Source: Dictyostelium discoideum | Taxonomy: Eukaryota | Direction: 5' to 3' | Assembly: GCA_000004695.1 (NCBI GenBank) | Contig: CH709173.1 | Span: 1 to 4,495 of the forward strand | DNA length: 4,495 bases | Shown here: positions 1 to 4,495 of the stretch, piece after piece | Position numbering within the stretch: the first letter of the stretch is position 1 | Layout of the letters: every line of letters begins with the position of its first letter | Made by a program: the position numbers and the translations under genes | The notes under the pieces: model-generated | The model's input: the letters and a program-made list of their open reading frames with translations, nothing else | What the model was told of the DNA's origin: nothing | Database searches by the model: none

Positions 1-50
1 GATTTTTTTTTTTTTTTTAATTTTTTTTTTTTTTAAAAAAAAATTTTATT
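1..50. repeat. Homopolymer low-complexity tract (T18, T14, A9)
   Basis: Direct reading: gat(t)18aa(t)14(a)9ttttatt. It lies immediately upstream of where similarity of the pseudogene copy to the downstream gene begins. Confidence 0.9.
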
Positions 51-87
51 AACTTACCAGCTATTATTTAATTGGGTATCATTTTAT

Positions 88-767
88 TTTAAAAGAACTG
101 GTGATTGGTTTTGAAAGCATTGATATTATTGATGAAGTTGAAGAAATCTAAAATAATACTTTTTTTGGTTTTTTTTTAGATTAAATTTGCTTTTAAGGGG
201 GGTTTTTCTTCGCTGTGTATGGATTCTATATTTTTAGCAAATTTACCTATCGATGGGCACTTTTTGAGTTACAAATGAAGAGTCAATTTTTTATTTTGAA
301 ATTTATTCAGGTGTTAAATTATTAATTGAAAAAAAAAATTTTTTAGAATATTTAGATTTCTCAAAAGACTATGAGCAGGGGATTTATAAAAATTATAAAT
401 CTGGAGAACAATTTAAAAAAATAAAAAATTCAATTTTATATAAATTTATTTTATTAAGAATATTTATTGACGGAATGAGTCATCAAGGTAGATCAGATTA
501 TACTATAATGGGGGATTTTGAAAATTATGTTGGCCCATTTTTTAAAATATGCCATGCCAACTTAAAAAATGGACTGGAAATAAAATTGTTTTATTTATTG
601 TTCCAAAAGAATGGTTTTACAATATACATCAAACAATTAAAAAATTATTTTCAGCGCAATTTAATAATAAATTAATAATTAAAGATAATAATGGATATGA
701 TTATGAAATTATAACATATGGATTAACAATCACAGCGGCGAAAATCAACACTTTAAAGCACCTTTAA
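88..767 (+). pseudogene. Degenerate partial paralog (pseudogene fragment) of the C-terminal conserved domain of the gene at 2962..>4495
   Basis: Hand translation matches the downstream protein in four segments. (1) 95-150: ELVIGFESIDIIDEVEEI* vs EFLMLGIENSISLKLLEKF. (2) 219-267: MDSIFLANLPIDGHFL vs MDKLFMEDFQIKGETF. (3) 280-534 in one frame: ESIFYFEIYSGVKLLIEKKNFLEYLDFSKDYEQGIYKNYKSGEQFKKIKNSILYKFILLRIFIDGMSHQGRSDYTIMGDFENYVG vs HSIFYFEIKKVLETLLNKKQFFERIDFDTDFETGIYTNYKSGQQFKDLKNKNKNKIVLLRIFTDSMQCQNKKDYTIMLDIENYIG (about 56% identical by eye). (4) 549-767 in a different frame: KIVLFIVPKEWFYNIHQTIKKLFSAQFNNKLIIKDNNGYDYEIITYGLT vs KLLLFVVPNDWLLNFHQTIRALFSSF/GNGFNLIIENEQIDVIPFGLT. The colinear segments are separated by in-frame stops (taa 148-150, tag 235-237, tga 265-267) and a 29-nt net insertion relative to the downstream copy near 530-600. 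Similarity ends at 767, equivalent to about 4160 in the downstream gene. No zinc-finger or N/E-rich region is present upstream. Confidence 0.6.
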
Positions 768-780
768 ATCCAAGTACTCT

Positions 781-960
781 TTTTAATATATATTAATAAG
801 TATACTTAATAAGTAATACTTATTAAGTATACTTAATAAGTATACTTATTAAGTACACTTTATTAAGTATTACTTAATAAGTATACTTATTAAGTATACT
901 TTATAAGTATACTTTATAAGTACTACTTAATAAGTACACTTATTAATATATATTAATAAT
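781..960. repeat. Array of about 11 palindromic decamers AAGT(A/C)(T/A)ACTT with 12-14 bp period, flanked by inverted termini TTAATATATATTAATAAGT(A/G)TACTT
   Basis: AAGTATACTT is its own reverse complement and contains GTATAC. Copies or variants start at about 799, 813, 827, 840, 852, 866, 881, 893, 905, 917 and 932. 783-807 is the reverse complement of 932-956 with one mismatch, so the whole block is roughly self-complementary. Confidence 0.85.
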
Positions 961-1087
961 TAGTTATTATTCTTTTAAATGTTTTATATGGGAATCGAAC
1001 CCGCGACCTCCCTTTTCAGAAGTTCCGCGGATGGAATATTTTAGATGGGAATCGAACCTGTGACCTCCCTTTCCGGAAGTTCCGTTT

Positions 1088-1093
1088 AAAAAA
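1088..1093 (-). terminator. T6 run on the minus strand, 5 nt downstream of the tRNA-like unit: pol III terminator-like
   Basis: Minus strand reads ...TTCGATTCCCATATGCAACA TTTTTT AAACGG. T-runs of 4 or more terminate pol III. The 3' layout (T-loop, 5 nt, 7 nt, 1 nt, T6) mimics a tRNA gene 3' end. Confidence 0.35.
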
Positions 1094-1101
1094 TGTTGCA
1101 T

Positions 1102-1158
1102 ATGGGAATCGAACCCGTGACCTCTTACATACTAAGCTACCATATGAGCTAAATAAGC
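1102..1158 (-). pseudogene. tRNA-like pseudogene or tRNA-derived pol III unit (A-box-like plus B-box; anticodon arm too short)
   Basis: Minus-strand read: GCTTATTTAGCTCATATGGTAGCTTAGTATGTAAGAGGTCACGGGTTCGATTCCCATATG. TAGCTCATATGG resembles the A-box/D-arm (TRGCNNAGNGG), and the B-box follows about 30 nt later. The T-stem has one mismatch (ACGGG/CCCAT). Only about 16 nt lie between the D-arm and T-stem, where about 22 are needed. No 5' acceptor strand is complementary to the 3' side ATGCAAC. Hence not an intact tRNA. Confidence 0.4.
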
Positions 1159-1227
1159 TTTGATTATTTTTCAATATAAATAGCTGAAATATTAATGTAA
1201 AAAAATTAAAAAAAATAATAAAAAAAA

Positions 1228-1357
1228 TGAAACTATAAAACACAAATAAAATGATATGTTTTATTTTTTAATTTAATGTTGTATAAATCTTTGTAAATAC
1301 ACTGAGAAATAATATTCAGAATATTTCTGAAACTATAAAACATAAATAAAATGATAT
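1228..1357 (+). repeat. 30-bp direct repeat pair TGAAACTATAAAACA(C/T)AAATAAAATGATAT at 1228-1257 and 1328-1357 (exactly 100 bp apart, 1 mismatch)
   Basis: Direct comparison of the two copies. A weaker similarity of the following 20-30 nt (tctttgtaaa...gagaaataat vs tctttctgaaaaataat) suggests a diverged 100-bp tandem duplication. Confidence 0.8.
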
Positions 1358-1560
1358 TATATAAAAAATAACATAATCTTTCTGAAAAATAATTTTTTTT
1401 TTTTTTTTATTTTTTTTATTTTTATTTTTTTAGTAATTGTTGACTAAAACCTATAAATATTTTCATTTATGTAACTACTGTATTCTAAACTTTACTACAA
1501 TTATATATTTGATATGTGTTTATTATTAAATTACCATTATAAATTGTAAAAAATTACTTT

Positions 1561-1670
1561 TTTAATTTTTTTTTTTTTTTTTACCTTTTTTTTTTATCTT
1601 TAATTTTTTTTTTTCTTTTTTTTTACCTTTTTTTTTATCTTTTTTTTTTACTTTTTTTTTTTTTCCAAAA
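1561..1670. repeat. T-rich simple repeat, (T)9-14 interrupted periodically by ACC / ATC / AA
   Basis: ...t14 acc t10 atc ttt aa t12 c t9 acc t9 atc t10 ac t14 cc: about 20-bp periodic interruption of poly(T). Confidence 0.85.
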
Positions 1671-1741
1671 TATTATTGATACATTTGTTGTTAAAATACA
1701 TTGATATTATTAAAAAAATTTAAATATTTTTATGTGTGATG

Positions 1742-1775
1742 AAAAAAAATCAAAAAAAAAAAAAAAAAAAAAAAA
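1742..1775. repeat. poly(A) tract (A8 T C A24)
   Basis: Direct reading; A24 uninterrupted at 1752-1775. Confidence 0.9.
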
Positions 1776-1980
1776 TTTAGGAATTTTTTTTTAACACAAA
1801 AAAAAAATAAAAAATTTTGTAATTTTTTTTTTTTTTAACGAAAAAAATAATATAATAAAATAACAATATAAATAATAATTTAGATAAATAATTGAAATAA
1901 AATAAATAATATGAACACAAGAATAAAAATTTAAATAAAAACAAATATGCTTTATTCACAGCAAAGAAAAATGCACCTTT

Positions 1981-2040
1981 AAAGCCAATTTAAAGCAAAT
2001 ACAATTTAAATTGGCTTTAAATTGGCTTTAAATTTGCTTT
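1981..2040. repeat. Inverted repeat built from mirrored 11-bp units: AAAGCCAATTT-AAAGCAAAT | ACAATTT | AAATTGGCTTT-AAATTGGCTTT-AAATTTGCTTT
   Basis: AAATTGGCTTT (2008-2018, 2019-2029) is the reverse complement of AAAGCCAATTT (1981-1991). AAATTTGCTTT (2030-2040) is the reverse complement of AAAGCAAATTT, matching 1992-2000 with a small insertion. A hairpin or cruciform with tandemly repeated arms can form. Confidence 0.8.
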
Positions 2041-2100
2041 TTAAAAAGGTAATTTTAAAGATATTTTTAAGGTCATTTAAAATTACATTAAAAATGACCT

Positions 2101-2161
2101 TTTAAATTTATTATAAAGCGGTTTTTAAATAATGTTTTAATCACTTTATAATAAATTTAAA
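2101..2161. repeat. Perfect 18-bp inverted repeat TTTAAATTTATTATAAAG ... CTTTATAATAAATTTAAA with a 25-bp spacer
   Basis: 2101-2118 is the exact reverse complement of 2144-2161. Adjacent smaller inverted repeats: AAGGTCATTT 2069-2078 / AAATGACCTT 2092-2101; GTAATTTT 2049-2056 / AAAATTAC 2079-2086; near-palindrome GTAATTTAAAATTAC 2177-2191. Confidence 0.9.
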
Positions 2162-2237
2162 AAAGTTATTTTTAATGTAATTTAAAATTACTTATTAATC
2201 CTTTTTTAAGCTTTTATTAATTATATTTTTTAAAATA

Positions 2238-2270
2238 CATTTTAAATGCATTTTAAATACATTTCAAATC
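2238..2270 (+). repeat. 3 x 11-bp tandem repeat CATTTTAAAT(G/A) / CATTTCAAATC
   Basis: cattttaaatg cattttaaata catttcaaatc read directly. Confidence 0.7.
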
Positions 2271-2302
2271 AATTTTTACACTATTTATTTCAAATTTATT
2301 AT

Positions 2303-2375
2303 AAAAAAAAAAAAAAATAAGAAAATAAAAAAAAAAAAAAAAAAATTAAGAAAATTAAAAAAAAAAAAAAACTAA
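2303..2375. repeat. A-rich low complexity with periodic TAAGAAAAT / TTAAGAAAATT insertions
   Basis: a15 taagaaaat a20 ttaagaaaatt a14 ct a5. Confidence 0.85.
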
Positions 2376-2753
2376 AAAGATAACCAAATTAATTTTAATT
2401 CTTTATTTATTTGTTCCAGTGGCAATTGAATTCTATTATTATTATTTTTATTAATTAATAATAAATAAGTGTTTCAGTTGCCTTGGGTTTTATTTTATGT
2501 TATTTTAAATTTTACTTCTCATTTCAAAAAGCGAAAAATATCAAAAAAAAAAAAAAAAAAAAAATTTAATTATTTGTTTTGCATATTTATATTATAAGTA
2601 TAAACATACATATAAAAAAAGATTTTTTATTTTTTATTTTTTATAATTAATAAACAATTAACGAGTGCACAGGTATATTATTGCATTAGTGTAGTTTTAC
2701 AATAAATTGGGCAGATTTTATAGTTTTTTTTTTTTTTATTTTAAAAAGAAAAA

Positions 2754-2830
2754 GGTATAGACAGGGTCATAGGTTCCCCGTCATTTTTTGAAAATGGGGT
2801 ATATCCCTCTAAATATAAAATTTTAAGTAC
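2754..2830 (+). promoter_or_regulatory. GC-containing island with imperfect palindrome CCCCGTCATTTTTTGAAAATGGGG (2776-2799) and TATA-like ATATAAAA (2813-2820); candidate promoter/enhancer of the gene at 2962
   Basis: It is the only G/C-bearing segment in about 500 bp of >90% AT sequence. It lies about 130-210 bp upstream of an ATG in AAAATG context, and TATA-like elements at 2813-2820 and 2851-2857 follow it. No TSS data are available, so this is positional inference. Confidence 0.3.
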
Positions 2831-2961
2831 TAAATCATATATCTACTTGCTATAATGCTAAAATTTGAATAAAATGAAAAAAAAAAAAAAAAAAAAAACG
2901 TAAAAACTCGAGGAAAAAAAAAAAAAAAAATATTATTTTTAATTTCCAGCCAGCAAACAAA

Positions 2962-4095
2962 ATGAATTTAAATAACATATCATGCATTAATTGCAGAGAA
3001 AAATTAAAGAATTTTAAAAATATTATTATTCATTATATTATGCATAAAAATATATGTCCATTTTGTCTTGCATATTACCGTTCTTATAAACAATTTTATG
3101 ATGTAAATGGACATTTCAACACCAAAAAATGTAAAAATGAACAAAATAAAATTATTACAAATAATCAAAAAAGAGATATCTTTTATAAAAAATTAATGGA
3201 TATTACTGGTGAAAAAATAAAATATCCAACAAATGATCCAGATGACCCATGTAAACATTTATGTAACCAAAACCAAGATGAAATTTTTTATCAAGAAAAT
3301 AATGAAAATAATGAAAATAATCAAACAATTGATAATGTAGAAAATCATGATATAATTGGGTTGGTACATAGTGAAGATGAAAACAATGAAATTAGAATAG
3401 ATGAAAATGAAGCAAACATTAATAATGAAAATAATGAAAATAATGAAAATGAAAATGCTCAAAACGAACCAATAAATAATAATCTAAATAATAATTTAGA
3501 TAATGAAAAATCAAAAAAAAAATTAAATGAGACTGAAATTGAATTTTTAATGTTGGGAATTGAAAACTCAATAAGTTTAAAGCTACTTGAAAAATTTAAA
3601 AGTTTTATTGACAAAAATAAAACCAATTTAAATCAAATAAGATACACACCTCAATATATGGATAAATTATTTATGGAAGATTTTCAAATAAAAGGAGAAA
3701 CATTTATAAATAAAAATTATGATCACTCAATTTTTTATTTTGAAATTAAAAAAGTATTAGAAACTTTATTAAATAAAAAGCAATTTTTTGAAAGAATAGA
3801 TTTTGATACAGATTTTGAAACTGGAATTTATACAAATTATAAAAGTGGTCAACAATTTAAAGATTTAAAAAATAAAAATAAAAATAAAATTGTATTACTT
3901 AGAATATTCACTGATAGTATGCAGTGTCAAAACAAGAAAGATTATACTATAATGCTGGATATAGAAAATTATATTGGAAATGAATTTAAAAATAATAAAT
4001 TATTATTATTTGTAGTACCAAATGATTGGTTACTTAATTTTCATCAAACAATTAGGGCATTGTTTTCATCTTTTTTGGTAATGGCTTTAATTTAA
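2962..4095 (+). CDS. Protein with two N-terminal C2H2-type zinc fingers, an N/E-rich low-complexity linker and a conserved C-terminal domain of unknown function (possible transposase-like or domesticated element protein); segment upstream of a -1 frame break
   Basis: 377-codon ORF from the track. ATG at 2962 in AAAATGAAT context, preceded by an in-frame TAA. Residues 8-28: C-x2-C-x12-H-x3-H with a hydrophobic C-x3-L-x5-I-x2-H pattern (classic C2H2). Residues 32-57: C-x2-C-x15-H-x5-C. Residues about 112-186 are an N/E repeat (NNENNENNE...). Residues about 190-377 are conserved with the upstream pseudogene copy. AT3-biased codon usage is consistent with the surrounding genome. Confidence 0.75.
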   Translation: MNLNNISCINCREKLKNFKNIIIHYIMHKNICPFCLAYYRSYKQFYDVNGHFNTKKCKNEQNKIITNNQKRDIFYKKLMDITGEKIKYPTNDPDDPCKHLCNQNQDEIFYQENNENNENNQTIDNVENHDIIGLVHSEDENNEIRIDENEANINNENNENNENENAQNEPINNNLNNNLDNEKSKKKLNETEIEFLMLGIENSISLKLLEKFKSFIDKNKTNLNQIRYTPQYMDKLFMEDFQIKGETFINKNYDHSIFYFEIKKVLETLLNKKQFFERIDFDTDFETGIYTNYKSGQQFKDLKNKNKNKIVLLRIFTDSMQCQNKKDYTIMLDIENYIGNEFKNNKLLLFVVPNDWLLNFHQTIRALFSSFLVMALI

Positions 4096-4495
4096 TTATT
4101 GAAAATGAACAAATAGATGTTATACCGTTTGGACTGACAATGGATATTCCAGAATTTAGAGCATCGTGTAAACTTAATGGACATAATTCAAATGAATATG
4201 CATGTCACACATGTGACAAACCAAGAGATGGTTTATTTATTTGCCATTCAGGTACATTAACAAAACAAGAAGATATTACAAATTTTCACTCCACCAAACC
4301 AAATTATGCTGAATTAAATGCTGATATAGAATTAAAAAAAATATGGGAAAAAAAAGCAAAAGATATTGGTATCAAAGGTGTGGGCAGAGGGTGGGTCGAA
4401 CCTTTGTCCATTAATTATTTAAAAACACAACCAGACATATTACATAATATTTTATTAGGTGTCGCACAAAGATGTTTATATTACAATTTTGATAA
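4056..4495 (+). CDS. Continuation of the same gene in the -1 frame (3' partial, open to the window end)
   Basis: The frame with codons starting at multiples of 3 is open from 4056 to 4495. Its hand translation begins GIVFIFFGNGFNLIIENEQIDVIPFGLTMDIPEFRASCKLNGHNSNEYACHTCDKPRDGLFICHSG... and continues VGRGWVEPLSINYLKTQPDILHNILLGVAQRCLYYNFD. Its start (FGNGFNLII...IPFGLT) is colinear with the upstream paralog (FNNKLII...ITYGLT). One extra T in the run 4071-4076 would fuse it to the 2962 ORF. Confidence 0.55.

Follow-up and report, generated by a model that had tools for sequence, protein, structure and literature searches.

A tRNA-derived A/B-box module inside a Dictyostelium discoideum DNA transposon, very probably DDT-B

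Based on the analysis of 4,495 nucleotides of Dictyostelium discoideum DNA (contig CH709173.1 of assembly GCA_000004695.1, positions 1 to 4,495; hereafter the window), a triplet of 57-bp units at 988-1158 on the minus strand is most probably the tRNA-derived A/B-box module of a terminal inverted repeat (TIR) DNA transposon, and the transposon is very probably DDT-B. The DNA transposons of this organism comprise the Tdd, DDT and thug families (PMC5633606). The core of the finding, an A/B-box motif in DDT-B that resembles an RNA polymerase III (pol III) promoter and is a retrotransposon target, has already been published. What is added here is the anatomy with several B boxes, the tRNA origin, the retention of the module across lineages and further insertion events.

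A 23-nt core, GAGGTCRCRGGTTCGATTCCCAT, occurs three times on the minus strand of the window (1124-1102, 1067-1045 and 1010-988) with an exact period of 57 bp, and its degenerate form, GAGGTC[AG]C[AG]GGTTCGATTCCCAT, is common to the three units, called A, B and C. Tandem Repeats Finder (TRF) recognized the array at 977-1124 (period 57, 2.6 copies, 80% matches, 0 indels, score 198). The B-box consensus GGTTCGANNCC has three minus-strand matches, at 991-1001, 1048-1058 and 1105-1115, and each of them is a perfect GGTTCGATTCC that agrees with the B-box definition GTTCRANNC (Spaller et al. 2017). In a window with a G+C content of 19.8%, none of 200 dinucleotide-preserving shuffles contained any match to this consensus. 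String search, TRF and shuffles thus all bear out the first-pass annotation of this DNA, which was made from the letters only and had reported three perfect minus-strand B boxes at an exact 57-bp spacing. The three units are as follows.

1102-1158, minus strand: unit A, a degenerate tRNA gene; B box at 1115-1105, anticodon-arm remnant GCTTAGTATGTAAGAGGTC.
1045-1101, minus strand: unit B, the second B-box unit; B box at 1058-1048, T6 (1093-1088) in its 5' part.
988-1044, minus strand: unit C, the third B-box unit; B box GGTTCGATTCC at 1001-991.

An A box at +8, a +1 G, a B box, an oligo-T stretch and the A-to-B spacing have been used as criteria for such loci (Spaller et al. 2017, PMC5391098). 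Unit A has a +1 G at 1158, 7 nt before an A-box-like TAGCTCATATGG at 1151-1140, and is followed by a T6 run at 1093-1088 that qualifies as an oligo-T terminator; both the A-box-like sequence in the first-transcribed unit and the T6 after it had been pointed out earlier. About 8 nt are deleted in unit A between GGTAG and CTTAG, where the D loop and the anticodon loop should be further apart. Units B and C carry, upstream of the core, the 21-nt stretches CGGAACTTCCGGAAAGGGAGG and CGGAACTTCTGAAAAGGGAGG, which are identical at 19 of 21 positions and share the pattern CGGAACTTC[C/T]G[G/A]AAAGGGAGG. The sharing of about 18 nt by two units, noted in the first-pass annotation, is therefore real, although the quoted 'CGGAACTTC.GAAAGGGAGG' has no literal match, one base having been dropped. 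The anatomy of the units supports the proposal, made in the same place, of a degenerate tRNA gene (with A box, B box and terminator) followed by two extra B-box partial duplicates.

The regions resembling window positions 680-1300 were aligned in eight D. discoideum or D. cf. discoideum loci (L001 to L008), chosen around members of both transposase gene types of the window. Outside the terminus at 731 the flanks of the copies are unrelated, whereas from CACAGCGGCGAAAATCAACACTTTAAAGCACCTTTAAATCC onward the copies are collinear; this boundary is sharp and common to the window, L001, L004, L005 and L006, and diverged versions of it exist in L007 (D. cf. discoideum) and L008. The order of the parts is terminus, 13-bp satellite (of variable length) and B-box units on the opposite strand, which in L001, L004, L006, L007 and L008 are followed by a T-rich region and an inward-pointing transposase-like gene. 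Transposase genes of DDT-B type occur 0.6-1.3 kb deeper in the element; for the genes of P0017, P0023, P0026 and P0028, in L004, L006, L007 and L008, the distance from the array spans 0.6-3 kb. The array itself lies 260-430 bp inside the left terminus and points outwards, divergent from the transposase gene, and the distance from the +1 G to the terminus is 320-441 bp across copies (387 in L001). At the opposite end, seen in L001 and L007, an imperfect inverted terminus (CACAGGGGCGAAAA...) is accompanied by a 12-13-bp satellite without a B box; the satellite follows the terminus in every copy, and at the right end as well. A common terminus, unrelated flanks and an inverted partner together indicate a TIR DNA transposon, of which the array is a left-end subterminal feature. 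In the window this transposon is represented by the following parts, in addition to the array.

731-790, plus strand: left terminus (TIR) of the DDT-B-type transposon, CACAGCGGCGAAAATCAACACTTTAAAGCACCTTTAAATCC..., with boundary motif CACAGCGGCG at 731.
772-959: subterminal 13-bp satellite (TATACTTAATAAG)n; TRF period 13, 12.9 copies.
1159-1750, plus strand: interior of the DDT-B-type copy, on the upstream side of unit A; truncated at 1956 or earlier.

In the last of these parts, homology to the other copies is clear to about 1240 and weak and T-rich to about 1720 (by BLAST, L004 8901-9060 is 73% identical to window 1558-1718); in intact copies the matching region runs on to the start of the divergently oriented transposase. 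The first-pass annotation had placed a pol III cluster between two copies of a repeated gene. This picture has to be abandoned: the array is internal to a TIR transposon with the common boundary CACAGCGGCG at 731, and the supposed gene copies are transposase pseudogenes of nested elements, one of DDT-B type (219-730) and one of a second DDT subfamily (from 1957).

The number of B boxes per copy varies (0, 1, 2 or 3), as does their spacing.

Window: 3 B boxes, spacing 57 and 57 bp.
L004: 3 B boxes, spacing 55 and 53 bp.
L006: 3 B boxes, spacing 56 and 53 bp.
L001: 2 B boxes, spacing 56 bp.
L007 (D. cf. discoideum): 2 B boxes, spacing 50 bp.
L008: 2 B boxes, spacing 55 bp after removal of a 5.9-kb long terminal repeat (LTR) element.
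L005: 0 B boxes; internal deletion.

GTTCRANNC is kept in all 15 units over these seven copies. The sequence around the B box can scarcely be aligned between the window and the L007 and L008 lineages, yet both lineages retain the core, and the position of the array is conserved in DDT-B lineages whose proteins are 77-92% identical. In every copy unit 1 is followed by an oligo-T run, which is T6-T8 in L001, L004 and L006; the A-to-B gap of unit 1 is a canonical 34 nt in these three copies and about 53 nt in L008.

Two sequence features beside the array were also recorded. Units B and C hold GGAACTTCCGGAA (window 1068-1081, minus strand), where L008 9190-9210 has the reverse complement, TTCCGGAAGTTCC; the pair suggests that an 18-bp palindrome, GGAACTTCCGGAAGTTCC, adjoined the B box in an ancestor. 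In the AT-rich stretch upstream of the array, a 29-bp direct repeat, GAAACTATAAAACA[C/T]AAATAAAATGATAT, occurs at window positions 1229-1257 and 1330-1358, about 100 bp apart, and has no match in the compared loci.

The boundary and end-structure data contradict three other explanations of the triplet. D. discoideum tRNA genes often carry an external B box and attract mobile elements, and the window is full of transposon fragments, so that the array might be taken for a degenerate tRNA gene that stands by itself in the chromosome, has two external B boxes and has had transposons accumulate beside it. However, array, satellite and terminus recur as one block at no fewer than six other sites, whose outer flanks are unrelated, which places the array inside the mobile unit rather than making it the target. 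The free-standing gene would also require that the 731 boundary CACAGCGGCG be the edge of a segmental duplication, and the inverted partner terminus speaks against this; we regard such a gene as extremely improbable. Still less credence is given to a fragment of a tRNA-derived short interspersed nuclear element (SINE) with a tRNA-like head, a body and a simple-repeat tail, to which the minus-strand order of tRNA-like head, B-box units and 13-bp simple repeat bears a superficial similarity. Homology among the copies extends upstream of the "head" through the transposon interior to the transposase gene, and the "tail" terminates not in poly(A) but in a TIR with an inverted partner. The possibility raised earlier, that the units are widespread as part of a known repeat, is thus essentially correct, except that the carrier is a DNA transposon and not a SINE. 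Finally, since TIR transposons of such a type have subterminal repeats, and the array is both subterminal and repeated, the 57-bp units could be binding sites for the transposase whose likeness to a B box is incidental. Against this highly improbable explanation stand the tRNA likeness of parts other than the B box (the +1 G, the A box, the remnant of an anticodon arm and the terminator), the right end, which has no array but only the 12-13-bp satellite, and the targeting of the motif by TRE5-A in vivo (PMC9012585).

The units in the window are not functional nuclear tRNA genes, and show neither a cloverleaf nor its proper stems. ARAGORN (default, intron mode and lowered thresholds) found no credible tRNA in the window or in any related copy, its sole candidate, a model with a 167-nt "intron", being dismissed as absurd. 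An Rfam search at E ≤ 10 of the whole window and of 930-1240 gave no tRNA, just a 13-nt T-loop match to transfer-messenger RNA, and Rfam gave no tRNA match for L007 either. These negatives agree with the first-pass annotation, which saw no intact tRNA among the units and expected a weak result from tRNA detectors. In unit A the acceptor stem strands GCTTATT and ATGCAAC form three of seven pairs and the T stem consists of GGG/CCC alone; the predicted RNA folds of unit A and of the whole array are not better than those of shuffles (z = +0.70 and -0.17, respectively).

The parent tRNA was sought with reverse-complemented published tRNA-family primers, which are 19-30 nt long and represent the anticodon arms of D. 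discoideum tRNAs. Unit A (GCTTAGTATGTAAGAGGTCACGGG) agrees with tRNA-Ala(AGC) at 19 of 24 ungapped positions and with tRNA-Thr(AGU) at 14 of 16, and the part 5' of its B box was equalled against the tRNA primers by nine of 2000 shuffles; the L001-type unit 1 fits tRNA-Thr(AGU) best. Judged from its sequence, the B-box module is tRNA-derived, and the search for the parent isotype, suggested in the first-pass annotation, narrows to Ala(AGC) and Thr(AGU), which the primer sequences do not separate. Units B and C had been described as similar to tRNA 3' halves. Their derivation from a tRNA stands, but their clearly tRNA-like portion is the variable loop and T arm only, and as 3' halves they are unconvincing. 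They might perhaps be read as Thr(AGU)-like anticodon stem strands without the loop (CTTCC-GGAAG-AGGTC); 3' halves of tRNA-Gln(CUG) or tRNA-Arg(UCU) were dropped as candidates because no anticodon stem can form.

The identification of the transposon as DDT-B follows from a published description. Barth et al. 2022 (PMC9012585) described a rearranged DDT-B fragment, made up of nt 428-1 plus 3291-1646 of the 5471-bp consensus, in which a natural TRE5-A.2 retrotransposon lies 46 bp upstream of an A/B-box motif. In the same study, a tagged TRE5-A integrated de novo upstream of the DDT-B A/B-box motif, and the relation of the motif to DDT-B replication was left to be determined. The module described here likewise lies within the first ~430 nt of its element, is read towards nt 1, pairs an A box with a B box in the absence of a real tRNA, and occurs in the same organism; in L001 the +1 G at 387 puts position -46 at 433, as against the published nt 428. 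As in the published fragment, the 5' end in the window abuts an internal DDT-B gene segment (731|730) in the same relative orientation. The published account (PMC9012585) knows one A/B-box motif, whereas here one or two B-box units are added at 53-57 bp, their number is variable and a tRNA parent is proposed. Also unlike the published copy, the window has no TRE5-A at -46. A literature search for descriptions of DDT ends found none beyond Glockner et al. 2001.

Two LTR insertions in other copies are consistent with the same kind of targeting. In L004 (7756-8136) and L006 (~7151-7653), the +1 G is preceded at a distance of 11-15 bp by a 381-bp LTR-like insertion (TGTAAT...ATTACA, with ATTT as target-site duplication (TSD)), which represents one shared event. 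DGLT-A elements insert 13-33 bp upstream, with a mean of 15, according to the literature. The length of the insertion fits neither the DGLT-A LTR (265 bp) nor that of Skipper-1 (390 bp) exactly, the DGLT-A primer-binding site is absent from all compared loci, and the similarity of the 381-bp LTR to the LTR of L008 is limited to 31 bp. In L008 a complete Skipper-like LTR element (3213-9134) is located between unit 1 and the next B-box unit of the DDT-B copy. It is inserted 12-17 bp downstream of the B box in unit 1, just beyond the tRNA-like 3' end, with ATAAT as TSD, and encodes a chromo-domain integrase. Its 379-bp LTRs are 96% identical, the left one is followed by a polypyrimidine stretch, and a polypurine tract is present. 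Skipper-2 elements use a similar downstream region, again according to the literature. These LTR insertions at positions typical of tRNA genes suggest, but do not prove, that the module behaves like a tRNA gene. Together with the TRE5-A data (PMC9012585) they agree with the landing pad for tRNA-targeting retroelements that the first-pass annotation had considered.

The module may go back to the capture of a tRNA gene similar to Ala(AGC) or Thr(AGU); this gene would have decayed to a pseudo-tRNA, keeping the +1 G, both promoter boxes (A and B) and the oligo-T. A segment made up of the B box and the spacer would then have been duplicated in tandem, and slippage or unequal exchange is the likely cause, since the copy number is 0, 1, 2 or 3 among the copies. 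TFIIIC would bind the B boxes, the extra ones acting like the external B boxes of Dictyostelium tRNA genes, and the A box would position TFIIIB upstream of the +1 G; pol III could produce a transcript of ~66-71 nt ending at T6. Retroelements that read TFIIIC and TFIIIB would treat the module as a tRNA gene and insert alongside it. TRE5-A reads TFIIIB and TFIIIC and targets the DDT-B motif at -46 (PMC9012585). Recruitment of TFIIIC and TFIIIB seems to be the most likely mechanism, as judged by analogy with established pol III biology and with the published TRE5-A targeting of DDT-B. The window copy may still bind TFIIIC via its three B boxes, yet be a poor transcription unit because the 8-nt deletion cuts the A-to-B spacing below the natural range; perhaps it is only a TFIIIC-binding array.

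Several points weigh against the view presented so far. The name DDT-B, well supported as it is, rests on the match to the published description and not on sequence identity with the consensus, and TFIIIC binding to the array is something that we infer by analogy. The window has no TRE5 at -46 to -54, its homology to other copies being unbroken to at least -80, and the TRE5-A ORF1 primer sites are absent from it. The A box of the window, TAGCTCATATG, agrees with the stringent consensus TRRYNNARYNG at nine of 11 positions (and with the permissive TNNNNNANNNG at every position). The A-to-B gap of unit A is, because of the 8-nt deletion, about 26 nt and thus below the working range of 30-60 bp; in D. 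discoideum tRNA genes it is 32-57 nt (Spaller et al. 2017, PMC5391098). The LTR insertions represent two independent events only, and all loci are transposon-rich. Finally, L005 has no array, and the array is thus dispensable at least for the persistence of a dead copy.

What the module does for its carrier is a separate question. It may be a neutral relic, that is, a captured tRNA gene fragment without a role for the element, whose B boxes persist because the copies are young and related and whose tandem units are slippage products. CACTA-type transposons capture fragments of host genes, and the DDT transposase is a distant relative of Transposase_21 (see below). In agreement with a relic, the cloverleaf has decayed in every copy and no tRNA is called, the RNA folds no better than shuffles, the window copy has its 8-nt deletion, and the unit number is variable, L005 being without the array. 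However, none of the 15 units has lost its B-box core, not even in L007 and L008, whose flanks can hardly be aligned, and the position of the array is constant across DDT-B lineages with 77-92% protein identity. We hold a neutral relic to be quite possible, only just short of probable. This explanation is about the benefit to the transposon, and is compatible with TFIIIC binding and retroelement targeting. That the array is instead a selected working part of DDT-B, a CACTA/Mirage-type cut-and-paste element, with a variable number of B boxes recruiting TFIIIC, we consider unlikely, although the retention of B-box cores in all units across diverged lineages supports selection. Such an array might keep the heterochromatin of transposon clusters away from the divergent promoter of the transposase, or might bring the element to pol III loci, and the cost would be that TRE5-A, DGLT-A-like and Skipper-like retroelements are drawn into the element. 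If this were true, there would be a three-way conflict among transposon classes, mediated by the pol III machinery of the host.

The window as a whole is a stack of at least four nested DDT pieces. In addition to the DDT-B-type copy that carries the array, they are the following.

1-218, minus strand: end of a DDT-A/S-type element, terminus CACAGCGAAGAAAAACC ending at 218; inserted in the DDT-B gene fragment.
219-730, plus strand: DDT-B-type transposase gene fragment; a frameshifted pseudogene that stops after ...YGLT at the terminus of the next element.
1957-4495, plus strand: element of a second DDT subfamily (DDT-A-like); terminus CACAGCAAAGAAAAATGCACC, 11-12-bp subterminal repeats at 1957-2280.
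2962-4495: transposase pseudogene of the DDT-A-like element; open reading frame (ORF) 2962-4095, then another frame to 4495.

Window positions 181-218 are 85-92% identical to many DDT-type termini in the compared loci. The gene fragment at 219-730 has a DNA identity of 87-89% to L001 16810-16323, L004 9658-10138 and L005 9914-10227; its translation matches P0017 and P0020, and the gene type is related to, yet distinct from, that of ORF 2962-4095. The element from 1957 to 4495 is 97.8% identical to L001 9007-11434 and shares its left boundary with L001, L002 and L003. Its terminus CACAGCAAAGAAAAATGCACC resembles the terminus at 731 and recurs many times, in both orientations, in the compared loci. 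Hypothetical proteins of D. discoideum share 94-99% identity with the translations of ORF 2962-4095 and of its continuation in another frame. Look-ups with the window ORF and with the AX4 proteins P0003, P0004 and P0016 led to no contigs. The frame changes of the two transposase copies lie at different places (~540-560 and 4074-4095), and both copies look like pseudogenes; homopolymer sequencing errors are possible. In the subterminal region of the DDT-A-like element, 1967-2043 forms a long imperfect palindrome of TTTAAAGC/TTTAAATTGGC repeats with weak, sub-threshold Rfam matches to microRNA precursors on both strands; microRNA loci inside thug-S repeats have been noted in the literature.

According to a 2017 review (PMC5633606), the DDT transposases resemble no known transposase. 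Pfam showed no significant match for the DDT proteins themselves, a profile search of PDB sequences was negative, and the AlphaFold model had a mean predicted local distance difference test (pLDDT) score of 39.6. Distant relatives were found by a profile of the DDT proteins (P0017-P0040; window 2962-4495), and 12 of them were aligned; three of the 12 pass the Pfam threshold for Transposase_21 (tnp2, CACTA type) and others match DUF1258 or DUF4218. A profile-profile comparison by hhalign gave a probability of 99.1% (E = 3.7e-19) over 393 columns, with the aligned motifs DG..., D..., C..C, H....G and FE. At the level of sequence profiles, the DDT transposases can be placed in the CACTA/Mirage/Chapaev group as distant relatives.

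Complete DDT-S-like elements of ~760 bp, which are short and non-autonomous, were also seen, with 2-bp target duplications in seven of eight, adjoining CACAG termini. One of them, in L001 (13036-13809), and at least ten similar elements (in L001, L002, L004, L005 and L006) contain GAGGTCCTGAGTTCGAAGCC. This sequence includes the B-box core GTTCGAAGC and is followed by a CCGTT/AACGG hairpin and a T run, which points to a second member of the DDT family with a T-arm-like motif.

The published account of DDT-B left open how the motif is linked to the biology of the transposon itself; to this a tRNA origin and a variable number of B boxes, one to three, are now added. Diverged DDT-B lineages and a sister lineage all have the module in the same position, and it is hit by at least three kinds of retroelements at distances typical of tRNA genes. 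It may therefore serve as a compact natural test object for the B-box number and A-to-B spacing needed by retrotransposons that read TFIIIC and TFIIIB, and would be a case in which one class of transposon carries the bait for others. For annotation, it is advisable to compare any B-box cluster from a repeat region of Dictyostelium with the DDT elements before calling it a pol III locus.

Among known systems, the module is similar to the A/B-box loci of the D. discoideum rDNA palindrome (PMC5391098), in which a +1 G and an A box at +8 (an A-box-like sequence in unit A) are combined with a B box and an oligo-T stretch; both have been multiplied by local duplication. However, those loci lie on extrachromosomal rDNA and show no tRNA similarity beyond the boxes, whereas the module of the window is tRNA-derived and lies on a DNA transposon. 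About 80% of D. discoideum tRNA genes have an external B box (ex B) downstream (review PMC5911963). As in these genes, an internal B box is followed in the window by further B boxes downstream. Unlike them, the gene is dead, and its extra B boxes are tandem copies of its own T arm and spacer at +57 and +114 bp; the array is thus not an intact tRNA gene with an extra downstream B box. Extra-TFIIIC (ETC and COC) sites, and the boundary elements formed by tDNA or SINEs in yeasts and mammals, are B-box DNA that may bind TFIIIC without giving a useful RNA. The window array resembles them in its clustered B boxes, and differs in having an A box and a terminator, with which it may assemble a full pol III complex. 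TRNA-derived SINEs are likewise decayed tRNA-derived sequences with A and B boxes that are multiplied in the genome; the module, by contrast, spreads inside a cut-and-paste TIR element and not via its own pol III transcript, and its head is not at a boundary. Finally, the carrier resembles CACTA-type transposons in its CACAG termini, subterminal repeats, 2-bp target duplications and a transposase distantly related to Transposase_21, but, unlike in the usual capture of host genes by such elements, what has been captured here is a pol III gene, and its promoter may still be active.

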